Below, piece by piece: positions 1-63,375 of a stretch of 64,000 nt of DNA. How positions within the stretch are numbered: position 1 is the stretch's first letter; every line of letters begins with the position of its first letter. The notes beneath the pieces were generated by a model. It ran no database searches. It was not told the origin of the DNA and saw only the letters and a list, made by a program, of their open reading frames with translations. The position numbers and the translations under genes are program-made. The DNA is from Octopus vulgaris (Eukaryota): NCBI GenBank assembly GCA_951406725.2, contig OX597827.1, positions 36,642,001 through 36,706,000 on the forward strand, read 5' to 3'.

Positions 1-278
1 GAGATAACCAAAAGTACCGATATTTCTCGTAAATCGAGGGGAGATAACCCTATTTTTAATGGTAGTGAGATAACGTATTTTTTTTGTAAATTTCAAGTTT
101 CGTTGGGTAGAAAAATCACTTTCAGTTGTAAAAAAATCAAAAAATCCCCCCCAAAACTGAACGCTTTAATTACACTTTCTGTCACAGTAAACCTCATTTT
201 ACCCCGGGAAATTTCTCTGAAAGGCATCTTTGCTGAAAAGGTGATCATTATTTTATCACATTTTTTTTGCCCCCAACA

Positions 279-800
279 AATTCCTATATTATCAGAGACT
301 ACACTATCTGAAGCATATATGTATAAAATTTTGCGAAGAAACAAAACTGATATGGGAATTTTTTGAAACTCCTCTCCAAACTGTTGGGAAAATTTTTTTA
401 CAGATTCGGAATCTCCATAACCAAAAACGTGGGTTTCTGTCGGGGGGAAAAAACAAAACAAAACAAAAAAGAAAACTAGAAGTGGGCGTAGTGACGGTTC
501 ACCTTGCCCGCCGTAAAGTTTCTGTGTTTAATTTTGTTGTTATTCTCCATGTTAGAGCAAATCGAACAAGAAGCGAGGTTGTGAGGAACTGCAAATCCAC
601 TAATGGGAGATAACTCACATATCTAACGCTTGTTTGCTTTGCAGCACATATGAAGTAACATTTTTGGCATACTTACACAATGTGCTCCCTCCCGACTTTG
701 TTGCCGTCTAACTTCCAGGAAAAAAGAAAAATGGATATTCTTTAATGAAATTTCTACAGATATGCTTCAGATAGTGCAGATTTCGATTATATTGGAATTT
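279..800. repeat. Diverged inverted repeat pair (~53 bp; 279-330 and 748-800), probably DNA-transposon-derived
   Basis: cactatctgaagcata (~302-317) is the reverse complement of tatgcttcagatagtg (761-776); flanks also align with mismatches. Confidence 0.5.
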
Positions 801-1029
801 ATGTTGAAACATTTTCCCGAGGGTTGTGGTGAAGAGTATTGGAAAATTCACATGAGTTGACTTTGTTTTCTCATAGCTTTCAGAAAAATAGGTAATTTAT
901 AATGAAATTTTTTTAAATTGTCCATTTAAAAAAGCAGAGTGCTTTCATTGTGGAAATATAGAACATAAAAATGCACTGTAGAATGAAGATAACAAAACCA
1001 CAGAACAAAGAAAAAAATAATAAATAGTA

Positions 1030-2430
1030 TATCATTAGAAGAAATTGGAAATATAATGATGAGGAAATTCATGACGGACAAAATCAGAAATGCAAGTGTT
1101 AAAATGCAGTTGGACACTGGTAGTGGTATCACCATTATAAACGAAAAATGTGGAACTAAGTCGGTAAGCTGGAATTAATTAAATCTTAAAAGGTAGCACA
1201 TGGTGTTACAAGAAGATTATATTTTCTTGGTAAATTTGAATGTAGTGTAACATTTTGAGATCAAACAAAAAAAGCTAAGATTTATCTGTTAAAAAATTCC
1301 CATAATCTTTTCAGCACAGAGTTGATGGAACTGTTCAAAGTATGGAATGTGCCCATACATGTTCTGTGTGGAAATATAGTCGGTTCAGTTAAAAGTTCAA
1401 ATGAGGCTGAATGACTGAAACAAAAAATTGCAATAAAACAGAGTGGAAAACCTGTATGTAAGCCAAAACAGAATAAAAAATTGCTCATGATAAAAAATAA
1501 ACATTGTTCAAAGGTAGATGTTCCATGGATGAGACCACATATCGACTTTTGATGGTCTTTTAAATGATTCTTACTACTTAGTTGTAGTTGATAGTTTTTC
1601 AGAATTTTCCTGAAATTCATAAGTAAAACACCAACCTCCTCAACTGTGATAAATTTTTTACACTAATTGTTTGCAAGATTTGGCATCCCAAAGAAGATTG
1701 TGTCTGACAATAGAATGCAGTTTGTGTCTGTTGAATTTAAAATATTTTGTGAAGCATTCGTGGTAGAATATATAACTATGGTGCCATATCATCCCAGATC
1801 TAATGGACAGGCAGAATGCTTTGTCAATACCTTCAAAAGGGTCCTTAGAAAATCACAGATGAGATAGCTCAACAACAATTTTTAAAAGTGTACTGTGTGA
1901 CACCAAACCCAAATACACCAGCAGGTAGCTCACCTGAGGAGCTGATGTTTGTAAGGAAAGTAAAATCAGTCTTTGCTAAATTGTTACCTGGCGAGAAAAG
2001 AAAAAGTGCCAGGGAAGACATAACAAGGTTCTTTAAAGTTGGTGAAAAGGTGTATATGAGGGCGTACAAGAATAGAAGGCTGAGTTGTAAAGATGGCGTA
2101 ATTGCCAAATGCATAAGTAAAATGATATATTCGGTGAAAAGTAGAAAAGGCATACAAAAGAGACACAGGAACCGACTGAAAAAGAGATTCATAGAAAGCG
2201 AACCTAAGAAGTTGGAGGAATGGTTGTATGATGTTCTAAATACCAATTCCCCTGCATATGATTGAACCCAAATGTACAAGTGAGAGGAAAAGAAAACATA
2301 GAGTTCCTGAAAATAGATACCAAACACAAAAAAAAATAAAAACTCAAAGAAAAGGAAGGTGGGGTGAATAAAAAAAAGATTATTGCTAAATAAAATGACA
2401 CTTCCTATGAAAAACTTAAAGAGGAGATGT
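1030..2430 (+). mobile_element. Degenerate, internally deleted Ty3/Gypsy LTR-retrotransposon remnant (protease + integrase + polypurine tract)
   Basis: VKMQLDTGSGITII protease motif at ~1096-1140; integrase FARFGIPKKIVSDN...PYHPRSNGQAE in ORF 1667-1867; ttaaagaggagaTGT (PPT then LTR-like start) at ~2416-2430; stops and frameshifts. Confidence 0.8.
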
Positions 2431-2433
2431 AGG

Positions 2434-2565
2434 TTCTTATTTTATTGACCTTGAAAGCATGAAAAGCAAAGCAGACCACAGCGTAATTTTAACTCAGAAT
2501 GTGAAGATGAACAAGCTGCAGCTAAGCTTTTTGCCTCACATGCTAATGATTCCACCAGCTTGCCA
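2434..2565 (-). mobile_element. Degenerate copy of tRNA-derived SINE (same family as 47408-47985)
   Basis: Similar to ...gaatttgaactcagaa...gctaagcattt...gctaa...ctgccagct of the 47.4-48.0 kb copies. Confidence 0.65.
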
Positions 2566-2599
2566 TAATTTTTTTCATTTATTTACAAATATTAATAAA

Positions 2600-2795
2600 G
2601 GCACCTGTGCAGGTGGCACGTAAAAAGCACCCACTATACTCACGGAGTGGTTGGCATTAGGAAGGGCATCCAGCTGTAGAAACACTGCCAGATCAGACTG
2701 GGCCTGACACAGCCTTCTGGCTTCCCAGACTCCAGTTGAACCGTCCAACCCATGCTAGCATGGAAAACGGACATTAAGCGATGATGATGATGATG
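2600..2795 (+). mobile_element. Short copy of the RTE 3' end with (GAT)n tail
   Basis: Near identical to 9600-9793 (aaagcacccacta...ggaagggcatccagctgtagaa...catgctagcatggaaa...gatgatgatg). Confidence 0.85.
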
Positions 2796-3229
2796 AATAA
2801 AATTTTTGTTTACTAATATTAAACACCTGAATATGTCAGCTGAGATATAGAGAACTCATTCATGTATAGAATAAATTTATGTGAATTCGCTTTGTGTGTG
2901 TACTCATCTGATTTAATATAATGTTATGGTTTACCTGAAAGAGAGAAGTCAGAGAAAGTAAGTGGGGACATCTATTCATGATCTAACAATTAGCACAGTT
3001 AAAACAGTAATCACATAGAGTGAGAGATACATATACCACACAGTACAAACAACACTGAGAGTTACCAAGAACAAACTCTCGTATTTGGCGCTGGCACATT
3101 GCTGCACATATGTCAGCACCATCTATTACTAAACTAAATAATGAACTTTCTCATCGTTTGTTTTATTGCTATTATTTCTTATATTTTGAATTAAGACTGC
3201 TTCCAATTTGGCAAATTTTGTAATATGTA

Positions 3230-3373
3230 GCCAAAAGTATAGTTATAATCTTGCACATAACTCAAAATCCTGATATACTAGAACAATTCTGAGTTTGAAT
3301 TTGGAATCAGCATCCTTGATTTAGTCTAAAACACATGCTTTTACCCCAGTAGCAAAATCTTTGTTGTCCAGTG
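3230..3373 (+). mobile_element. Possible DNA transposon end (Chapaev3-like ...CCAGTG followed by TAA)
   Basis: tgaatttggaatcagca...ttgttgtccagtg|taa resembles recalled Chapaev3-type termini; opposite end not found. Confidence 0.3.
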
Positions 3374-3379
3374 TAATAT

Positions 3380-4000
3380 ATTGAGTTGGAATCTAATTTT
3401 TTCGAGAATTCTATTTTTGAATCTATTTTCTTTTTTTTTTCTAGTTAATTTTAGTTAATTTTTGTTTATTTTCAGATCATTAAAATGGAATGTCAAGTTA
3501 AGAAAAACGAGCATTTTCGACACCTGTGTGTTTTTCCTTTTAATCAAGGTTCTAAGGCTGCAAAAGCTGCTTGCGACATTTGTGCTGTATATGGAGAGGG
3601 TGCCATAGCTGAAAGAACCGCTCGTGATTGATATGCCAAGTTCAAAAATGGAAATTTTGACCTCAAAGACGCACCTCGTTCTGGCCGTCCAGTTGAGTTT
3701 GATGAAGAACTATTTAACCAACTTTTGCACAGAAATTCTCATCAAACGACAAAGGAACTGGCAGGAAAAATGGAATGCTCCCACACTGCTATAGAGAAGC
3801 ATCTTCACACGATGGGAAATGTTCAGAAGTAAGGAGCATGTGTTCTGCATGCTTTAAGTGACAACAACAAAAATCAATGAGCCACAATCACTGCTGGTTT
3901 GCTTGCTCATCACCGCTCAACTCATGGATACAAGCAACGATTTCTTTACCGAATCGTTACTGATGACAACAAATGGTGCCTGTATATCAATATGAAGCAG
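3380..4000 (+). pseudogene. Mariner-type transposase pseudogene, 5' half, truncated by the PLE
   Basis: MECQVKKNEHFRH...ICAVYGEGAIAERTARD...FKNGNFDLKDAPRSGRP from 3485; RIVTDDNKWCLY (first catalytic D region) at ~3950-3985; in-frame stops. Confidence 0.85.
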
Positions 4001-4719
4001 CATATAATACTTTTTGTTGAATGTTTTCTTAAATACTTTCTTATTATCAAAGAATGTATATATATTTCCACTCGTGTGGGTACCTTACAACTTCACTTTC
4101 TTATATATATAAACACCACACGAGTCCTGAAAATGCCACCTAAGTCACAACAAACAGAAAAGTTATTGAACCAAAGCATCCTAAAAGAATTACAGTAAAT
4201 CTCCAAACTTTCAACCCTAACTAACAAAGTCATGCAATCACAATTATACCTAAATGGACTCCTGGAGGCTGAAACAGTTAATCAAACTCCTGACATCATC
4301 TGAACATTACAAAATCTAATCAAATCTATAGAGACAACAATACTTCAAAAGCAGGAACACACTACAGACTATCACTCAATTAAAAACACTCTTAACATCT
4401 GGATTAAAAATCTCACAGCATGCAAATTTGCTTTCTGGAACTTCATAAAAAATAATAACAAAGCAGACATGATCTGAAAATAAACAAAAAAAATTACACC
4501 CAGTATGAACAACCCAGATCCCGGAATAACCAAAACTCCTCTAGTAGGCCACACCAACAACCCAGACCCCAAAATAACCAAAACCCTTTTAGTAGGCAAC
4601 ACATCAATGGGGGGGGGGGGAAGACTAACACACACCAAAATACCGCAGTCAGAAGAACCCCCAGAAATAATTTTTTAGGCCTGGGCAATAGAATCCACAA
4701 CAACAGATGGTAGATAACA

Positions 4720-6315
4720 ACCCTGAAAAACCAAAAATATTGAATCTCTCAAACCTAAACCTGTCGATCCAGCAAATCAAAATCCTTTCAAAAGGACTAA
4801 AATTCACTCCAACTCCACCTGAGTGAAATACAGGATGTCACACTTTTGCAGAAAATTACGCCTCACAGAGGAATTTTTTGACAAAGAAATCAATAACGAC
4901 GAATCAATGGTTTGTAACAAAAGCAGTTATAATCCCACAAAAGGCAGAAACAAAACTTTGGACAAATTTTGTGACTACATTTCAAACTTTCCTTATAGTG
5001 AACTTCCACAACCTAAACCCAACAACAGTAAAAGGGAATGGTAAATGATCTATAAGTTACGAAACAATCATGACACCACAATCAAGAAAGCAGATAAGGG
5101 TAGTGCTGTTATCATTATGGATACTGAACAATATAAAAACTGTATCTCATCTTTTACAAGATACTATCTACTATGAAAGAGTAGTCAACTACCAACAGTC
5201 AAAAACAATGACCAAATTAAACACACTCATTTGCCAACATCGAAATAACTTAACAGCAAAGGAATGCGACTACATAACAAACTTGAATTGCAAAACCAGC
5301 ATCCTCTACGGGCTTCCAAAAATTCACAAGAGCAAAATTATTACCAAAGCTTGCAAAAAGCCCACTTCAACCTGCATCACTGTGTCACATCCCACTGATC
5401 TCAAACTGAGACCAATTGTGGCAGGCCCAAAATGTGAAACACACAGATTAAGCAACTTTATCAATATCATCCTAAAACCAATACTGAAACACATACCAAG
5501 TATTGTAAGAGATGACCTGGACCTATTAAATCATCTCCCCAAACATGCCAATAAAGACATTTTAATTGTCTCCTTTGATGTAATAAACCTTTATACTATG
5601 ATCCCACATGAATATGGACTGGAAGCCATTAAATTTTGGCTAGAAAATACCCCAATGAGGTCCTGGAAAGAATAAAAAAGAATTCATCATCGAGGGCTTT
5701 AAGTTTATTCTCTAAAACAACTTTTTTAATTTTAATAATAACACCTACAGACAGGTGTCAGGGACTGCAGTGGGTACTAAAGTTGCTCCTACTTATGCAA
5801 ACCTGGTGATGGCCTACCTAGAATTACAAATTTATGAAGAATCCAAATATAAGTATGGCCTGTCTTTCCACAAATACCTGTTGGAGAATTGGAAATGCTG
5901 CTCGGATGATTGCCTCATCTTATGGTCCCACACACTCGACCAACTTATTGATTTCAAAAACTTAATCAACAGTGTCAACAACCATATCCAATTTACAATG
6001 GAATATGGTCAAGACCAACTTCCTTTTCTTGACATTCTTATAAAAAAAGGCACCAACATTGAAACTGATATCCACTACAAACCAACTGATTCCAAACAAT
6101 ACCTTCTGTTCACCTCCAATCACCTAAAGCACACAAAGACAAACATCCCCTTCAACCTAGCGAGAAGAATCTGTACAATTGTCTCAAATTATAGAACATG
6201 AAATAAAAGACTCCAAGAACTAAAGGCAATTCTTCTTGAAAGACATTACCCAGCATCATTAGTTGACAATGGAATAGAACGGGCCAAGACAATTACTACC
6301 CAAGACTTACGAAAA
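4720..6315 (+). pseudogene. PLE reverse transcriptase pseudogene
   Basis: ADKG-like motif ~5090; LYGLPKIHK, LRPIVAG, VSFDVINLYTMIP, GTAVGTKVAPTYANLVM, DD motif, FTME...LPFLDI, KPTDSKQYL in ORFs 5070-5675 and 5755-6201; frameshifted. Confidence 0.9.
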
Positions 6316-6486
6316 CCATACCTACATATATACAGACACACAAATGCATACTCAATACCAGCATACACAAAACGCACATGCACACACATACACACCACCC
6401 AGATAAACCCAACACACAGAACCCCTGATAAATACAACACATTCGCACACACATACACACCCACACATACCCATACACATAGAGAT

Positions 6487-8691
6487 ATGTTACTTGAAGC
6501 CTTTGACGAAGTGGAAGTGGGTATAGCTATACATGGGGTAGAAGACAACTGGACGTTTCTGAGGGACAACCTGCTGAAAGCCGCTGACCAGATCTGTGGC
6601 TGGTGCAAAGTCCCCTTAAGACCCAAAATAACGTGGTGGTGGAACAATATTGTTGATAGGGCTATTAGACAAAAGAAACAGGCTTGGAAGGCCTGGAAGA
6701 ACGGTGGTAGCAGGGAAGTGTATCAGACTGCCAGAAGGGAAGCTAGGAGACAGGTCTATCTAGCCAGAGGGGAAGCAGATAAAAGAAAATTTGCCAATGT
6801 CCTGCGCCGTGAGGATGAAAGACTTGAGGTATTTCGTGTTGCAAGACAGTGTGTGAGAGAGAATCGAGATGTGGTAGGAGAGAAATGTGTTCGCATGGAG
6901 GATGGTTCACTTGCGCTAAATGAGGATGCAAAGAGAGAAGCTTGGAGACGCCACTATGAAAGGTTGCTGAATGAGGAAAATGAATGGGATAAAGAGAGTC
7001 TGCCGAATGTTGACCCAACAGAGGGACCAGCTATCCGAGTTGATTGTTCCGTGGTAGCTAAGGCAATTAGAAGCATGAAGACAGGGAAAGCCCCAGGCCC
7101 ATCAGGAATTACTGCAGAGATGCTCAAAATATCTGGTAGTGTCGGCTATAGCATAGTTACCCGTATAGTTAACCAGGTGATACACGAAGGAGTCATACCC
7201 AATGACTGGTGTAGCAGCATAATAGTCAACTGCTACAAAGGTAAAGGCGATGCCCTAGATACAAATAACTACAGGGGCATCAAGCTGTTGGATCAGGTAA
7301 TGAAGGTTACGGAGAGGGTTATAGCCCAGTTAATTAGAGAGAGAGTTAGCTTAGATGATATGCAGTTTGGGTTCGTGCCAGGGAAAAGTACTACTGATGC
7401 TATATTCCTGGTAAAACAGCTGCAGGAGAAATACCTAGCCAAAGGTAAGCCCTTGTACCTGGCTTTTGTTGACTTAGAGAAAGCCTTTGACAGGGTCCCC
7501 TGATCCCTTATCTGGTGGTCAATGAGGAAACTAGGGATAGATGAATGGTTAGTGAGAGCTGTGCGAGCCATGTACAGAGACGCAGCTAGTAAGGTGAGGG
7601 TTGGCAACGAGTACAGTGAAGAATTCCGGGTAGAGGTTGGGGTCCACCAAGGTTCAGTCCTCAGCCCCCTCCTATTTATCATAGTCCTCCAGGCAATAAC
7701 GGAAGAATTTAAGACAGGATGCCCCTGGGAGCTCCTATATGCTGATGACCTTGCTCTAATTGCTGAGTCACTATCAGAACTGGAGGAGAAGTTTCAGGTG
7801 TGGAAACAAGGATTAGAATCGAAGGGCCTTAGAATCAACCTAGCCAAAACCAAAGTCCTAATAAGTAGGAAGGTGGACCAACCACAAACGACTTCAGGTA
7901 GATGGCCCTGCTCGATCTGTAGAAAAGGTGTAGGTAGAAACTCTATAAGGTGCACCAAGTGTAAGCTATGGACACATAAGAGGTGCAGCAATGTCAAAGG
8001 TAGGCTAACTGGGAAGATAGTTTTCGTATGTGGCAGATGCTCAGGAGAAATAAACACTGGAAATGTGCAGAGACCAACTTCTACCACGTTCCAGGGAGAC
8101 AAACTAGAAGTAGTTGATAGCTTCCGCTACCTTGGAGACCAAATTAGTAGCGGGGGTGGGTGTGCTGAAAGTGTAACTGCTAGAGTAAGAATAGCCTGGG
8201 CAAAGTTTAGAGAGCTCTTACCCCTGCTGGTGACAAAAGGCCTCTCGCTCAGAGTAAAAGGCAGACTTTATGATGCATGTGTACGTACAGCCATGCTACA
8301 TGGTAGTGAAACATGGGCCGTGACTGCTGAGGATATGCGTAAGCTCGCAAGAAATGAAGCCAGTATGCTCCGATGGATGTGTAATGTCAGTGTTCATAAT
8401 CGTCAGAGTGTAAGTACCTTGAGAGAAAAGTTGAACCTAAGAAGCGTCAGTTGTGGTGTGCAAGAGAGACGGCTGCGCTGGTATGGTCATATGACGAGAA
8501 TGGCTGAAGATAGTTGTGTGCAAAAGTGCTACACCCTAGCAGTTGAGGGAACCTGTGGAAGAGGTAGACCCAGGAAAACCTGGGACGAAGTGGTGAAGCA
8601 CGACCTACGAACTTTAGGTCTCACCAAGGAAATGACTAGAGACCGAGACCTATGGAAGTATGCTGTGCGTGAGAAGACCCGGCAAGACTAG
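6487..8691 (+). pseudogene. RTE reverse transcriptase ORF (5'-truncated) with a single premature stop at 7501-7503
   Basis: ORFs 6487-7503 and 7522-8691 are in one frame; GKAPGPSG, NYRGIKLL, QFGFVPGKSTTDAIF, FVDLEKAFDRVP, GVHQGSVLSPLLF, YADDL, FRYLG, RRLRWYGH, RGRPRKTW; TGA fits a CGA>TGA change. Confidence 0.92.
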
Positions 8692-11136: not shown

Positions 11137-11430
11137 TCTGTCCAGTAACGAGTTTCAGACCTGTGCTGATATCCAGCAATTTGTGTGCCATGTCAGGCTA
11201 CATCCACTATCCCACAACACTTCACCTGTGTTTAATGAAGAAGACTGCTTCACTGACCTGGGCCAATAATAATAATATTAATAATAACCTTAGGAACGAG
11301 ACACCAAGACACCTGATGAAGTCTGGAGGGTATATCAGCTGAAACGTGTTAACAACAAACAAGATGAGGACAAATATTCGTCAATTGTAAATAATGTACA
11401 TAATTCCTCATCTCTTAAATATAGAACTGT
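11133..11430 (+). mobile_element. Short PLE pLTR-like segment next to (TA)n with hammerhead-like motif at 11308-11350
   Basis: gacac-CTGATGA-ag(t)ctg...cagct-GAAAC-gtgtt; stem III/cleavage triplet looks deleted. Confidence 0.55.
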
Positions 11431-11469: not shown

Positions 11470-12195
11470 GGCTCTGCAGTGACAACCATGATTTTGAGAG
11501 ACGGCTCACCACTTCACCCTACATGGATATCTCCTCACCATTATCCACACTGCCATCGTCCTGTAAATTTTGGACTGTGCCTCTACTGTTTCTCCTCACA
11601 CCCACCCTACTCTTACCCGTCTGCCATTCCACCACCACCTTACCCCTCCAAAGCGCCATTCTCTGAGTCTTCCGGCAACTCCAGTTTGACCCCTCCATCT
11701 TGCACATTTTCCCTAACCCGACCTTTACCTCCTTCAAATGAGTCCTGTGTGACCTCCTGATCCACAGTTTCTTCCCTACCCCTTCCTCCCAGCTTGGCTC
11801 CTGCTCTCACCCACGCTGTTGCACTTGCTCCTTCCTCTCCAACATCACTGTCCTCACTGGCATCCTCCCATCACAGCATCGATTCCTTTACCTGCACATC
11901 CAGTAATGTTATTTACTGCATCTTCTGCTCTCTCTGTCCTTCCTAGTACATTGGTCAAATGGAACACTGCTTGGGTGACTGGTTTGCAGAGCACCTCCTA
12001 GACATCTGACTTGGCAATTACACCCTGGTCTCATGCCATTTCTGCTCTACTGGTCATTCGCTACATCTGTCTGTGTTTGGATTGTCTCTGCACAGGGGCC
12101 ACCCATACTCTCACCTTCACCACAAGCAGGAATTAATCTTCTCCCTTTGTTCCTTTGCACCTAATGGGTTCAACTTGCTACCTCTCTTCATCTGA
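11470..12195 (+). pseudogene. PLE C-terminal GIY-YIG endonuclease remnant
   Basis: FTCTSSNVIYCIFCSLCPS*YIGQMEHCLGDWFAEHL read from ~11888; APNGFN-like terminus at ~12157-12175. Confidence 0.8.
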
Positions 12196-13024: not shown

Positions 13025-13305
13025 TGCAAGAATAAATTCGTTCAGCCGGGTCACTGTAATTATCTCCTTTTCATTCAGCCTTCTTCTGGCTATTTCGTCA
13101 TGTTGAACTGTTAATTGCTAAAAAAATGTTTTTTCTCTCTCAATTTTTTTTCATTCTCTCTCCTTTTTTTCTTATTCTTTTCTGTTGAAGATCATAGGCT
13201 CGAAATGTAAAAGACAGTTCCGTTCTTCCCGAGCATTAAACTAATACACGTGCTTGCTTTCCTACACCTATCTTTGTCTTTTGTTTTCTGTAAATTTGAA
13301 TAATA
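13025..13305 (+). mobile_element. Short pLTR-like element with hammerhead-like motif at ~13176-13214 (family also at 33955-34145 and 56470-56702)
   Basis: tctttt-CTGTTGA-agatc(atag)gctc-GAAA-tg-TA-aaaga; downstream sequence shared with the other two copies. Confidence 0.6.
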
Positions 13306-13372: not shown

Positions 13373-13600
13373 ATTAAAGTAAAAAAGTTAATGTCTGGTC
13401 TCATCAGACTCTAATCTTCGGATCAGAGTCTGATGAAATGCCTGTGAGGTTAAGGCCTTTGTGGATGTGAAACCATTGGTCACTCTGTGACCAGACATTA
13501 ATTTTATTTCTTTAATACTTTACTACTCTATGTTTTAGAGAGTGCTTCTTTTTCGGATACATGATACATTGACGAGGCTGAAACATATAAAATAATAAAA
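13373..13600 (+). mobile_element. Fold-back mini-element between (TA)n runs carrying a type I hammerhead
   Basis: ~28-bp inverted repeats 13373-13400 and 13489-13516; inner hairpin tcatcagactct...agagtctgatga. Confidence 0.7.
13424..13487 (+). ncRNA. Type I hammerhead ribozyme, canonical core
   Basis: cagagt(13424-29)-CTGATGA(13430-36)-stem II-GAAA(13469-72)-ccattgg-TC(13480-81)-actctg; perfect 6-bp stem I, GUC triplet; stem II weak. Confidence 0.8.
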
Positions 13601-35507: not shown

Positions 35508-35712
35508 AATGTGACCGCGTGTGTACTGTTGGCGATTTTTTTCCCATGTCTTCCCTTCTCTGGATCTTTCCTTTTCCTATGTTTCTGATGAAGAGCTCTG
35601 CTCGAAATGTTAAACCCTCCTTCTTCCCTTCCTTCCTGAGCGTCCAATAATACTATATTTGTTCCACGTCCTCGCGTTGTTGTGTTTTCTCTTTGTGTTT
35701 TCATGTTTGGAT

Positions 35713-35717
<5 letters not shown>
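35508..35717 (+). mobile_element. ~210-bp (TA)n-embedded mini-element with minimal hammerhead motif at 35581-35614
   Basis: gttt-CTGATGA-a-gagc(tct)gctc-GAAA-tgt-TA-aac; second copy 30243-30443. Confidence 0.75.
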
Positions 35718-35759
<42 letters not shown>

Positions 35760-38331: not shown

Positions 38332-40156
38332 TAGTTTTATTTTTATAGCGTGCTTTCACTTCACTACCGAGCGCAGCTCTGTGTGCCTTGGGTATGTGCT
38401 GTGATTTGTTGTGATGCTCTGATGGTTATTGTATGGAAAGTGTTCTGCGTAGGATGTGTGCAGTGCCTAGTAGTGCAATTTTCTGTATGTTATATGTGTT
38501 TGTAAGTCCTGGTGTTTTTGTTATGTATTTGTCTGAATATTTTTTTATCATGCCTAATGCACCTACTATGATAGGAATTGTTTCTGTTTTCAGATTCCAC
38601 ATTCTAGTTACCTCTATTTCCAGGTCTTTGTATTTTGAGAGTTTCTCCATTTCTTTTAGAGACACGTTGTCATCTGCCGGTATTGATACATCAATTAGAA
38701 AGCATTTTTTTTCTTCATGATCTCTGACAACTATATCTGGTCTGTTGGCCTTAATTTCTCTATCTGTGTGTATCGGCATATCCCAGAGTATGGTTGCTTT
38801 CTCGTTTTCTGTGACCTTTTCTGGTGTGTGCCTATACCATCTTTTTTCTGTTGTTATTCCATAATGTTGGCATAGCTTCCAATGTATGTAGGTTCCAACT
38901 CTGTCATGTCTGTGAATATATTCCTTCTTAGCCAGGACTGGGCAGCTAGAGATAATATGATTTATTGTTTCTTGTCCATCTCCACATATTCTGCAGTTAC
39001 TTGTAATATTTCTTTTCATTACATGTTTTTGGTAATTTCTGGTGGGGAGGCTTTGGTCTTGTGCTGCAATTAAAAATCCCTCTGTTTCTGCTTTGAGTCC
39101 TGAGCTTCTCAACCATTGCTGGGATTTTTCTTTGTCTATTTCTTTTGCGTTTAGTTTAGTGCAGTATTTACCATGAAGGGGCTTTTCTTGCCATCGTTTT
39201 ATCATGGTTCGTTGCTGTTCTATTTTTAGTTTGGATTTCATTTGTTTTATAGCTTTTGTTGTTTCTTCATCATCTTCTTCTTCTTCTTCTTCGTGTTTAT
39301 TAGGTGGTATGATTTCTTGTTTGTATTTGTCAGCTTCCTTAAATACTGAGAACAGTTTTTTGTTTTGCTCGTGTTTTGCTGCTATCTGGATCAGTTTTCC
39401 TTCCTTCTGAAGTAGATATTTTTGCAGTCCTATGGTGGTTATTTTATAGTAGTTTTCCAGCTGTATAAGGCCTCTACCACCTTCTATACGTTGTATATAT
39501 AGTCTTTCTATGTCAGATTTTGGGTGATGCATCCTAGATCCTGTCAGTATTTTTCTTGTTTTCCTATCTATTTTGGACAGTTCATTTCGTGTCCAGTTAA
39601 GGATATTGTAGCTGTAACTTATAACTGGGACAGCTAAAGTGTTGATACCTATTATCTTGTTTTTAGCATTGAGCTCTGTTTTTAGTATTGATCTAACTCG
39701 TCTATAATATTCTTTTTTTATTTTCTCTTTCATTTGTGTGTGTTGTGTCTTATCTAGTTCATGGATTCCTAAGTATTTGTAAGTTTGGCTTTGGTCTAAT
39801 TCTTTTATTTCATTGGTTTTATCTAGTGTGATGTTGTTACTCTCAACTAGTTTTCCTCTTTTCATGGTTACTTTGGCGCATTTTTCTAATCCAAATTTCA
39901 TATCTATTTCTTTGGTAAATCCATGAACTGTCTTTAATAGTGTTTCCAGCTGTTTGTCATTTGCAGCGTATAGTTTTAGGTCATCCATATATAAAAGGTG
40001 GCTGATCGTTTTGCCGTAACATTTATATCCGCATCCAGTTCTATTTAGCATATCAGATAGAGGTGACAGTGCCAAGCAGAAAATGAGTGGAGAGAGCGTG
40101 TCTCCCTGGAATATTCCTCTTCTAATGGGGATGTCTTTGGTTTCCATGAGTCCCTC
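38329..40156 (-). mobile_element. 5'-truncated R4/Dong-like non-LTR retrotransposon inserted in (TAA)n
   Basis: (TTA)n on both sides (~38296-38328 and ~40161-40208); RT, CCHC and REL domains. Confidence 0.92.
38426..40147 (-). CDS. Stop-free C-terminal part of R4/Dong polyprotein (RT C-half, CCHC zinc knuckle, restriction-like endonuclease); 5'-truncated, so probably not functional
   Basis: RGIFQGDTLSPLIF, HLLYMDDLKLY, YKYLGI, GGRGL, CRICGDGQETINHIISSC, RHD, NRPDIVV...LIDVSIP, EKLSKYKDL. Confidence 0.85.
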   Translation of the reverse strand: METKDIPIRRGIFQGDTLSPLIFCLALSPLSDMLNRTGCGYKCYGKTISHLLYMDDLKLYAANDKQLETLLKTVHGFTKEIDMKFGLEKCAKVTMKRGKLVESNNITLDKTNEIKELDQSQTYKYLGIHELDKTQHTQMKEKIKKEYYRRVRSILKTELNAKNKIIGINTLAVPVISYSYNILNWTRNELSKIDRKTRKILTGSRMHHPKSDIERLYIQRIEGGRGLIQLENYYKITTIGLQKYLLQKEGKLIQIAAKHEQNKKLFSVFKEADKYKQEIIPPNKHEEEEEEDDEETTKAIKQMKSKLKIEQQRTMIKRWQEKPLHGKYCTKLNAKEIDKEKSQQWLRSSGLKAETEGFLIAAQDQSLPTRNYQKHVMKRNITSNCRICGDGQETINHIISSCPVLAKKEYIHRHDRVGTYIHWKLCQHYGITTEKRWYRHTPEKVTENEKATILWDMPIHTDREIKANRPDIVVRDHEEKKCFLIDVSIPADDNVSLKEMEKLSKYKDLEIEVTRMWNLKTETIPIIVGALGMIKKYSDKYITKTPGLTNTYNIQKIALLGTAHILRRTLSIQ

Positions 40157-40209
<53 letters not shown>

Positions 40210-40214
40210 GGTAA

Positions 40215-40600
40215 AATATATCAACAAATAAAGGACTCAGTTATGGGAACAAAATTTGCACTTACATTCTTCATATGCTAATCTAGTGATGGGATATTTA
40301 GAAGAGAAATTATACAAGGGAGTAGAGAAAACTTTTATTTTTTGAGAGAAATCAAATGATCTACAAATATTCAATAACATTTTGAACACCCTTCATCCAT
40401 CTATTAAATTCATGACAGAAACCAGCCATAATGATTTACCTTCTTAGACATTCATGTAAAAATACACAAATTCACAATGGATATTTATTACAAAACAAAA
40501 AACAGACACATCAATATTTGAACTTTTACTCTCGTCAACCTTCACACATCAAATAGAATATTCCATATAGAATAACAAGATGTATTTGTTCAATAGTTGT
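40215..40600 (+). pseudogene. Old PLE RT fragment
   Basis: MGTKFA...YANLVMGYLEEKLY, LNTLHPSIKF, LPFLDI-like and NIPY motifs; many indels. Confidence 0.7.
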
Positions 40601-44747: not shown

Positions 44748-46130
44748 ATCAAAATAAAATAAAAACATTTGGAGTTTAAATTAGAATTATCGCTAGTGTG
44801 AGTTGAGTGCTAAGTTCGATTATAATTGGGAGTCTTATGGCCGACGGACGCTCCCGGGTGGTCTACATATGATATTCTCTGGTTATACCCGGCACTATAG
44901 AGAGCCTGGTTGTAGTGTTGTGCATGATTATTGAAAATTTCTCTATTAGAGGATAGTTTTGTCAGTCTGTCTGAGATGGCTTGGACCGTGGTGCTAATTA
45001 TACAGGGTGGATGGTTGGAAGAGGTATGGATGTATTTGGTAGTTTCTTCCGGTTTCCTATACGGGTAGTGAAGGTGCTTATTCAAATCTAACGTAACATC
45101 TAAGAAGTTTACTATTTTAGTATTGGTCATAAATTCTAGTTTAAGATTGAAGGATTTGAAAAAAGCCTGATCTTTTTCCTAATTCTTTCTAGTTTACTCC
45201 TATTGTTGGTGGGGTATATGAAGAGAGCGTCGTCTCTGTATAGACCCCCCTGAAGATCCGGTACCTCGGAGAAAAGCTTCTTGAGCAGGTAGGCCCCGAC
45301 CAAGTCAGTCACCTGAGCTGAATCGCTCGAGCCCATAGCCACATCGAAATTGTCGGGGGTATCGGATCTGGTCCAGAGTCTACCGTCGAATTCTATTATG
45401 GTTTTTCTAGCTAATAGAATTATGTCAATTTTTTCTCTGTCTATGAGTGAAAGGTTGCGGGCAAAAATAAGGGATTTGTTAAGTAAGATGGGGGATATAC
45501 TGGCGTAGTAGCTAGCTATGTCGAATTGGATGAATGAGTAGTCGGGCCTATTGGTGATAGTGTTAAACAATTCTAGCACATCGTTGGTGTTAATCCATAG
45601 TTGGAGTGGGATGTGGGGTTTCTATTTTTACTTTATAACCTTATGCCTTTACATTTATTTATATTTCTCCTTTCAACTCTTTATATCTTTATCCTCTACA
45701 TTTTTATATTATTCTATACTTACACTTTTTATACATTTTTTATCCCTCGTCCCGAACTCCCGCCCCTCCATCTTCAACTCTATATATGTATTTATTTATT
45801 TACATTACCTCAACATCCAAATTTCCTCATTCTACATTGAGAGAAGAAAGAGATGGACGCTTCAATTCTATGCTGCTGCCGCATTATGTCGTACGTGAAT
45901 GAGAGGATTTGCATCCCCAACCAAGAATTTTTGATGTAACACATGTCCTTGTGGAAGCTGTTGTGCGCGGCTGAAGAAGGCCACAGACATACATTATGCA
46001 TTGTTATAAATCTGTCTAATAAAGGCCCAAAACATATGTACCGCTGAATCCTTCGCATCATGTTTTTATTTTATTTTGATCAATTTACTCCACCACCTAC
46101 ACCACCAAACGGTATACACAGGTGCTTATA
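44744..46130 (-). mobile_element. Naiad-like PLE: RT fragment on minus with an inverted, hammerhead-bearing pLTR at its 5' side
   Basis: FIQFDIASYYASI, FDVAMGSSDSAQVTDLVG, GLYRDDAL, VNFLDVTLDL, SNHPP in ORFs 45136-45579 and 44810-45130; 25-bp IR 44744-44768 / 46060-46084; (TA)n flanks. Confidence 0.85.
45967..46044 (+). ncRNA. Hammerhead motif with G12>A lesion
   Basis: gcgg-CTGAAGA-aggcc...ggccc-AAAA-catatg-TA-ccgc; palindromic stem III, GUA triplet. Confidence 0.7.
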
Positions 46131-59611: not shown

Positions 59612-60214
59612 TATATATATATATAAACAATGAATTAAATAGAGAGATACAATTGACAATCCAACGATTTATTTATATTATAATATAACATAATATACTA
59701 TGAATATGAATATAATATAATATAACATTAAAAATTCATTAAAAAAATAAAACACTTTTTTCAACTTATATACATTTTTTGATATATAAACAATTTAATT
59801 CACTTATATAAGTCTCATCAGAGCTAAAATTTAGAGATGAAATTCCTCATGAAAGGACGGCTAGATAGTAAAAGAATTAACTCAAAAGCCTATGTATTAT
59901 GAGCTTGAGTGTTAACATTTCAACTACATAGCAATTACAATTAAAAAACAACAAAATTATAACGGAAAAAATAATTAAATAATTAACTATCGAAATAATA
60001 TTAATCCAAACTCGTTTAGGTCAAAGACAATCTTTCGCTATTATAATAACATGCAACAACAATATCTAGGTATTTAAATTAAGAATTAGAGTCTTACTTA
60101 ATCTAGAAACTGTAATAAAATGTGTAAAAAGAAATACAAAGTATAATTATATTGGTAATATATAAGAACTCTTCTATTCATTTAAAGTTATTGATATAAA
60201 AAAGATTGTTTAAA

Positions 60215-60464
60215 CAATTGCAGCGTGGAAGGTGTTTGTAAGCCATTTAAGAAACACCACAAAAGCTGTTCAATTCATTGTCAGTGAACAGGTTGCGGAT
60301 TTTAGCGACGAAAATATTTTGACAAATTAAACTTAAATGTTGAAGTGAATCGAATGGCTTTTGTGTGTTTCTTAAATGGCTTACAAACACCTTCCACGCT
60401 GCAATTATTTTCGTTCCAGCACACGATCTCAGATCAAATCACTTGCTATGCGAGTACATCTCCG
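60215..60464 (+). mobile_element. 250-bp fold-back mini-element with 12-bp TSD and a hammerhead-like motif (G3-C8) in the loop
   Basis: TSD agattgtttaaa at 60203-60214 and 60465-60476; ~60-bp arms 60216-60277 / 60346-60406; ttgtca-GTGAACA-g-gttgc...gcgac-GAAA-atat-TT-tgacaa at 60278-60325. Confidence 0.8.
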
Positions 60465-60716
60465 AGATTGTTTAAAGTAACTAATAAAAAATGTTCTTTA
60501 TTCATTTAGTTTATTGGAAGAGAAATATGAAGAGAAACATAACAAAAATGTTCTTTGTTTACTTAATTTATCATTTGAAGTTACTTAAATATGGATTATT
60601 ATTCGTATATTATGGAAGGGAGAACTCAGTAAATAAAAATTAAGTAATATAAAATCATTAAAAATCAAAAGGCAGAAACAGGAGGTACATGGTTGCATAA
60701 AATTGTACATACAATG

Positions 60717-62715: not shown

Positions 62716-62971
62716 CTGGCCCCTGTGCCGGTGGCATGTAAAAGCACCCACTACACTCTCAGAGTGATTGGCGTTAGGAAGGGCATCCAGCTGTAGAACT
62801 CTGCCAGATCAAGATTGGAGCCTGATGCAGCCATCTGGTTCGCCAGTACTCAGTCAAATCGTCCAACCCATGCTAGCATGGAAAGTGGACGTTAAACGAT
62901 GATGATGATGATGATGATTTATATATGTATACAGATACATAGATATGTGTGTGTGTATGTGTGTATGTGTT

Positions 62972-63039
<68 letters not shown>

Positions 63040-63120
63040 CTTCAACATTTAAATTTAATTTACCAAAATATTTTCATTGCTTTCAGACCGTGAACTGATC
63101 ATGATAAAATTCTGTGTGTA

Positions 63121-63186
<66 letters not shown>

Positions 63187-63375
63187 CATACATATATATA
63201 TATCATCATCATCATCATTTAATGTCTGTTTTCCATGCTAGCACGGGTTGGACAGTTCAACCAGAGTCTGGGAAGCCAGGAGGCTGCACCAGGCTCCAGT
63301 CTGATCTGGCAGTGTTTCTAGAGCTGGATGCCCTTCCTAATGCCAACCACTCTGTGAGTGTAGTGGGTGCTTTTT
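62716..63375. mobile_element. Two short RTE 3'-end copies in opposite orientation (62716-62917 plus; 63203-63375 minus)
   Basis: Both match 9630-9793 and end in (GAT)n/(ATC)n. Confidence 0.85.

Follow-up and report, generated by a model that had tools for sequence, protein, structure and literature searches.

One insertion of an abundant short repeat in Octopus vulgaris: a likely Penelope-like terminal repeat with a tail and a hammerhead-like motif with a swapped G3-C8 pair

The locus described here lies in a stretch of 64,000 nucleotides of Octopus vulgaris DNA (the window), AT-rich and crowded with microsatellites and the remains of retroelements. It consists of two inverted arms around a loop that carries a hammerhead-like motif, the whole being framed by a direct repeat. 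This raises the question of what was mobile: the entire fold-back of 250 bp, as in the initial annotation, or some part of it, and by what route it was inserted. The features are listed in Table 1.

Table 1. Coordinates of the features at the locus, and of the second family copy in the window.
Feature	Position	Strand	Basis or remark
Left target-site duplication, 12 bp	60203..60214	+	exact repeat; empty-site joint
Inverted, more truncated element copy	60215..60277	-	corresponds to 60346-60407; junction near single-copy
Direct copy of the high-copy family	60278..60464	+	contig depth and loose ends
Minimal type I hammerhead-like motif	60278..60325	+	descriptor, fold, family majority
Stem I	60278-83/60320-25	+	part of the hammerhead-like motif
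Core G3UGAAC8A	60284-90	+	followed by an extra G at 60291
Stem II	60292-96/60305-09	+	followed by GAAA at 60310-13
One-sided extension (tail), 57 nt	60408..60464	+	between the two ends of the element
Right target-site duplication, 12 bp	60465..60476	+	exact repeat
Second copy of the family, decayed and limited to the 5' part, surrounded by microsatellites	63034..63116	-	E 8e-12; nhmmer E 4e-5

As had been noted from the sequence, the insertion is bounded by a perfect 12-bp target-site duplication (TSD), AGATTGTTTAAA. The repeat can be extended in neither direction, and the 12-mer occurs twice in total in the window. The probability of such a match by chance at a fixed site is about 1e-6 (9e-7 from the flank composition); empirically, 402 of the 53,499 non-low-complexity 12-mers of the window recur 200-320 nt downstream.

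Contigs from four of 24 public runs (X1, X3, X5 and X7, with four species labels) were aligned to positions 59900-60715 at a threshold of 80% likeness, and the results given here are those of the displayed rows (40 of 179 variant rows, 15 of 99 joints and 24 of 1,470 loose ends). The empty site, which the initial annotation had proposed to look for in other genomes, was found in three of the four runs, X1, X3 and X7, as a joint 60202>60465 with the 12-mer present once and a fit on both sides; the support is one contig per run, at single-contig depth, and the X5 contigs contain no exact empty joint. The flanks (59930-60200 and 60477-60660) are themselves an old low-copy dispersed repeat, with tens of related contigs that are about 80-90% alike; other copies of the flank likewise lack the insert, and the empty contigs could therefore be paralogs. 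The orthologous locus is favoured by a 149-nt flank contig of X7 that is identical to the window. The true TSD and the empty site bear out the proposal that the insertion was a single event.

The depth of the contigs shows which part of the insertion is repeated. Summed over contigs, which is not a copy number, the depth is 0.2-3.3 million over 60292-60459 and 45-6,841 in the bins of the flanks as far as 60655, so that the family part is about 1000-fold deeper than the flanks in the four runs. At the junction of arm and loop (60272-60277) the summed depth is 11-235, compared to 0.6-3.3 million at 60320-60347: this junction is near single-copy, being present at a handful of loci at most. The fold-back hairpin is therefore the by-product of one insertion and not the unit of the family, which is the direct part of about 190 nt (60278-60464). 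The left arm is specific to this copy, and the 250-bp fold-back has to be given up as the mobile unit. Typical single-contig depth is about 45-50 in X1 and X3 and 4-11 in X5 and X7, and the ratio of summed to single-contig depth suggests of the order of 10^4-10^5 family copies, which agrees roughly with the presence of two family copies in 64 kb.

The 3' end of the unit is sharp. It had been suggested that 3' ends be compared across copies, and in all four runs (91, 107, 88 and 64 contigs) the contigs leave the element behind 60464 and enter flanks that are unlike each other and AT-rich (median length 111-255 nt, agreement 0.50-0.55). A further 31-34 contigs in three runs end at 60462 and continue with TG, which is a CpG-decayed form of the same end. 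All seven displayed 3'-flank rows continue TAAT, which suggests a target preference, these rows not being independent because the runs share loci. There is a weaker second end near 60405-60409, with 20 contigs ending behind 60405 (in X3, from few displayed rows). Among the joints listed (15 of 99) are a go-back joint 60406>60304 in X1 and X3, and the joints 60234>60409 (X1, X3, X5) and 60233>60414 (X1), which would correspond, at other loci, to a short inverted arm joined to the tail. The window has a private A at 60407, and second ends would therefore be clipped by a base or two.

At the other side, 49-93 contigs per run have loose ends before 60278. The runs agree for about 16 nt upstream and then disagree, the pieces being short (median 15-40 nt); the family sequence reaches 16 nt or more beyond 60278 on its upstream side, where the other copy in the window agrees with it. 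It is worth adding that one joint in X3, 60334>60278, with two letters between, has a depth of 3,227, about 60 times the single-contig depth. If it is a go-back, there would be a subfamily with a tandemly doubled ribozyme, for which a dimer in cis is possible; if it is a change of strand, it would be a recurrent inversion junction near stem I.

The second copy, placed at about 63040-63115 of the minus strand by the initial annotation, is real. It keeps C8 and six of six stem I pairs (one through a double change from G-C to A-U, one as a wobble), but the G at position 3 is gone and stem II is broken, mostly by changes of CpG type. The idea that a ribozyme made the inverted flanks of this copy (arms 62812-62995 and 63119-63302) was considered and rejected, since the two SINE-like repeats that flank it are 83% identical and no closer to each other than to four of five other SINE-like copies in the window (84-91%; the fifth 73%). 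Searches for further copies gave 0 and 4 matches in metagenome_contigs, the four spanning 21-23 nt as expected by chance, 0 and 0 in viral_contigs, and 0 in genome_contigs, these sets being poor in animal DNA.

The inverted arms (60212-60277, as reverse complement, and 60346-60410) measure 66 and 65 nt, in good agreement with the 60 bp or so first estimated. In the arm alignment they differ by four substitutions and one 1-nt indel, and the AAA of the left TSD doubles as the first three bases of the left arm. CpG positions account for three of the four substitutions, and the family-majority letter is found in the left arm at both 60355 and 60407. CpG observed/expected is 1.3 in the direct copy and 0.36 in the window. 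The differences are consistent with arms that were identical at insertion and decayed afterwards. The left arm (60215-60277) stands head-to-head with the direct copy and has neither tail nor ribozyme, and the segment 60408-60464 has no partner in it; this is the unique 3' extension of the earlier description (there about 58 bp). The insert is thus bounded on both sides by a 3' end of the element, of which only one includes the tail.

This anatomy is that of the ends of Penelope-like elements (PLEs). In PMC3846280 PLE inserts are described that have an inverted pLTR next to them, a one-sided tail of 31 bp and TSDs of 8-10 bp; the same scheme, with a tail of 30-40 bp, appears in PMC8557442, and the same anatomy in PMC8969392. 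Among the closest known systems are Pen2/Pen2a of Adineta vaga (PMC3846280), together with the scheme of PMC8557442: here too there is a head-to-head, inverted and shorter copy at the 5' end, a tail on one side, a TSD that bounds the whole unit, and a pLTR of about 180-220 bp. The octopus insertion differs in having no ORF between the repeats and no partner element that could be found, and in its tail (57 nt against 30-40) and TSD (12 against 8-10 bp). In keeping with a terminal insertion of a PLE (EN+), the locus has a TSD in an AT-rich target, a 5'-truncated inverted copy head-to-head with the direct one, a tail on one side, though longer than published, and a 3' end that is fixed in 64-107 contigs per run in all four runs. 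An inverted truncated copy, a one-sided tail, a TSD and a minimal hammerhead are together the published anatomy of PLE ends. We consider it probable that the locus belongs to an abundant family of short repeats whose 3' end is sharp and whose front carries a hammerhead-like motif, that this repeat is a PLE terminal repeat with its tail, and that the backwards arm comes from priming on both strands of the target at two sites in the RNA. The direct copy is then likely to be a 5'-truncated pseudo-LTR plus tail.

Membership of the PLEs is not proven, since a protein-coding partner (RT/endonuclease) was looked for and not found. The frames of the direct copy gave a best E of 0.09 against a profile of 50 PLE proteins, which are relatives of one PLE in the window; the 53-aa open frame of the direct copy had no relative in the protein libraries (four matches, all repeat-summed); and the direct copy matched none of the PLE remnants in the window. 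A further possibility was that a PLE ORF has its N-terminus at 60306-60464. This reading is rejected, as no homolog was found and a C>T change at 60384 introduces a TAA stop into the frame in 58-63% of the depth in all four runs. The family may be a dedicated non-autonomous element or, with about equal likelihood, a set of heavily 5'-truncated copies of an autonomous PLE. The repeat library of O. vulgaris (PMC13282606) may already list the family under another class, and related work is found in PMC6765202, PMC8495972 and PMC3884650.

The most distinctive part of the family is the hammerhead-like motif. The initial annotation had pointed to such a motif with G3-C8 in the loop, and it is present, with a palindromic helix III, U17 at 60319 and a predicted cut at 60319/60320 after the triplet UUU. 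The type I descriptor has two matches in the window, this being the sole one with a short stem III; a match with short stem III occurred in one of 20 shuffled windows. The minimum free energy fold of 60272-60332 consists of stems I and II (z -2.4). Rfam at the gathering score gave 0 matches in the window, which is uninformative for minimal variants, and there are no ribozyme families among the 31 matches at E<=10.

The core is a property of the family and not of this copy. The sequence GTGAACAG is in the majority line of the loose ends in all four runs, and the contigs that leave before 60304 (62-90 per run, agreement 0.70-0.80) read it followed by GTCGC. This 5' side of stem II is fully Watson-Crick with GCGAC, and G3-C8 with a Watson-Crick stem II is therefore the family state. 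Instead of the CUGANGA core (C3-G8) the family has GUGAACA, in which the 3-8 pair is kept but swapped. All else expected of a minimal hammerhead is present: GAAA, NUH, G10.1-C11.1, an extra base between 9 and 10.1, a palindromic helix III, and helices I and II. Judged by its sequence, the motif may be classed as a hammerhead-like core variant.

The minimal hammerheads of PMC4209133 are similarly type I, with a 6-bp helix I, the extra base between 9 and 10.1, G10.1-C11.1, a palindromic helix III and U17, and are mostly dispersed single motifs. G3-C8 is however the majority in the octopus family and is found in none of the 56 representatives given there, of which 53 start with CUGA and three with UUGA, in a set collected with core-biased descriptors. 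It had been cautioned that UUU is a poor cleavage site. This caveat carries little weight, since by our own count U17 is present in 24 of the 56 representative metazoan minimal hammerheads in Fig. S3 of the supplement to PMC4209133, and in the PLE example from oyster GAAA is followed by A-U-U-U, which gives UUU. The natural 3-8 covariation described in PMC3088659 is U3-A8, and the C3G/G8C change in the Poseidon PAc of Anolis carolinensis (PMC11167929) is an engineered and partial rescue, while the swapped pair of the octopus family is natural. Neither a natural G3-C8 nor a report of a cephalopod hammerhead was found in the literature searched; examples of the former may be contained in the survey of such variants by Lünse et al. 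2017, the largest for PLE hammerheads.

In the energy model an active dimer (-22.8 kcal/mol) would gain almost no advantage over two monomers (2 x -11.1), and it loses to a form extended by A14-U17 (-24.6) and to the unconstrained dimer (-27.7). With one ribozyme and an unstable helix III, the lone insertion copy is probably inert as a monomer. The new aspect is the family-wide swapped core, the type of insertion being ordinary for PLEs. We put forward only tentatively that the family is a non-autonomous PLE satellite of tens of thousands of copies with a natural G3-C8 hammerhead core that is still functional.

As to the route of insertion, target-primed reverse transcription, as first suggested, is probably the best mechanism, carried out by a PLE. 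A PLE RT/GIY-YIG protein would nick the AT-rich DNA with a stagger of 12 nt. The end of the bottom strand would prime cDNA at a distal start, 60464, and run for 187 nt to 60278. The last three bases of the left TSD (AAA) are complementary to 60408-60410, a microhomology through which the end of the top strand could pair with UUU and prime about 63 nt from a proximal start, 60407. The two cDNAs would be joined head-to-head, and filling of the gaps would yield the TSD; the tail would be the distance between the two starts. Two nicks 12 nt apart, each 3'-OH priming at one start site, would be the simplest account. In PMC11167929 a PLE protein nicks and extends both strands of AT-rich DNA in vitro, and the RNA has two internal start sites, whose spacing equals the genomic tail; the main site lies 111-118 nt past the point, at stem II, where the ORF begins. 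The octopus element resembles PAc in its two ends separated by a tail and in its AT-rich target. Stem II and 60407 are 116 nt apart, which is a resemblance to the 111-118 nt of PAc that may be coincidence, and the cut site is 28 nt past the start of stem II, compared to 26 past the start codon in PAc. On the other hand, the region after stem II is coding in PAc, whereas the only long frame in octopus is stopped in about 60% of the depth. Catalytic mutants of the PAc ribozyme insert normally, and cleavage needs protein (PMC11167929); hence the ribozyme need not have acted in the insertion at 60203-60476.

For an insertion of the same family, the inverted arm could also have arisen differently: at the junction the cDNA, or an antisense template, would have folded back and primed itself, and the product would have been joined to the target through the AAA microhomology. 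Self-priming is preferred for head-to-head PLE repeats in PMC3846280, because of palindromes at the junctions, and at this locus there is a weak pairing of 7 bp where the arm meets the loop, which closes the hairpin. However, the junction here is a 68-nt loop and not a palindrome, and self-priming does not predict that the outer end of the arm should coincide with the second end of the family (60405-60409). We therefore regard it as rather unlikely, and retain priming on both strands.

Two further origins of the family are more improbable still, both to the same degree. The first is a monomer of a non-LTR retrozyme, moving via circular RNA. Metazoan retrozymes (PMC7229834) are likewise short and non-coding, with a type I hammerhead, TSDs of more than 4 bp and probable dependence on PLEs, of which they have been proposed to be derivatives (bioRxiv 10.64898/2026.07.22.740005); a length of about 200 nt and a long TSD would suit. 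But they form head-to-tail arrays with a canonical hammerhead in each unit, whereas the motif at 60278-60325 is of the minimal PLE type, neither a tandem array nor a whole-unit go-back joint is seen among the joints listed (15 of 99), and the 3' end enters unlike flanks 145 nt past the cut site. The second is a SINE mobilised by a LINE, in which case the inversion would be L1-type twin priming and the likeness to a hammerhead incidental or captured. The high copy number, the length of about 200 nt, the fixed 3' end and the 12-bp TSD would all fit, LINE-type RT fragments are present in the window, and only about 16 nt of family sequence are visible upstream of 60278, where the tRNA head and the Pol III A and B boxes of a tRNA-derived SINE would be expected. 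Against this, there are 0 tRNAs in the window, no B box at up to two mismatches in 60201-60480, and a 3' end without poly(A) or simple repeat, and every hallmark of a minimal hammerhead is present except the identity of the 3-8 pair. A duplication of 62 nt, moreover, does not normally accompany the inversion in L1 twin priming. The initial annotation had already argued against a MITE. Such an element, or a fold-back DNA transposon, is hardly credible in spite of the long and near-perfect inverted repeats and their strong hairpin (-123.9 kcal/mol, z -14.3), because the repeats are not terminal but offset by 57 nt, the junction is near single-copy, and other copies have the fixed 3' end without a conserved left inverted repeat.

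Ends of PLEs from several families are frequent in the window. At 35585-35615 (+) there is a minimal hammerhead with a standard core, CUGAUGA, an extra A, a 4-bp stem II and GAAA-UG-UU, in a unit of about 210 bp at about 35510-35720, inside a (TA)n run; the unit is probably the solo end of a different PLE family. A small fold-back at 13385-13500 surrounds a standard hammerhead core at 13430 and has two nested pairs of short inverted arms, one of which repeats the core backwards; it is possibly a head-to-head insertion of the same type, from another family. A decayed hammerhead-like motif at 45965-46050 (+), with a CUGAAGA core, a long stem II, a palindromic helix III (CAUAUG) and G12 lost, lies some 350 bp upstream of, and antisense to, the fragment at 44810-45621 (-). 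This fragment is RT-like, with RT-like clusters in the Atlas, and its 3' part weakly matches a PLE profile (E 5e-4). The motif could be the inverted terminal repeat of that element. Motifs resembling hammerhead cores were also seen by eye at 11315 and 13185 (11310-11350 and 13180-13210, +).

Protein-coding remnants are also found. A broken PLE ORF at 4650-6318 (+) continues in the same open frame as a LINE-type RT to 8691 (Pfam RVT_1), apparently a nested insertion, the LINE-type part being presumably RTE-like. For the PLE RT fragment at 5049-5672 the closest named protein is from Octopus bimaculoides, with 84% identity over 70% of the query. A decayed GIY-YIG-like C-terminus is at 11761-12190 (+) (weak profile match, E 9e-4), and a 604-aa open stretch at 38426-40240 (-), with RVT_1 and zf-RVT, is a largely intact 3' half of a LINE.

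The origin of the inverted ends, tails and TSDs of PLEs is unsettled between self-priming and priming on both strands. A very-high-copy family without an ORF, with empty sites, offers a direct statistical test of this, from one assembly. If the core cleaves, G3-C8 would be a natural compensatory variant, and because searches with CUGANGA, such as the descriptor of PMC8557442, miss it, PLE ribozymes would be undercounted. If the family is indeed a functional G3-C8 satellite, its many minimal insertions, with inverted arm, tail and TSD but no ORF, would serve as natural material with which to test two-site, two-strand priming in vivo, and PLE families that have been reported to lack hammerheads may hide swapped cores.
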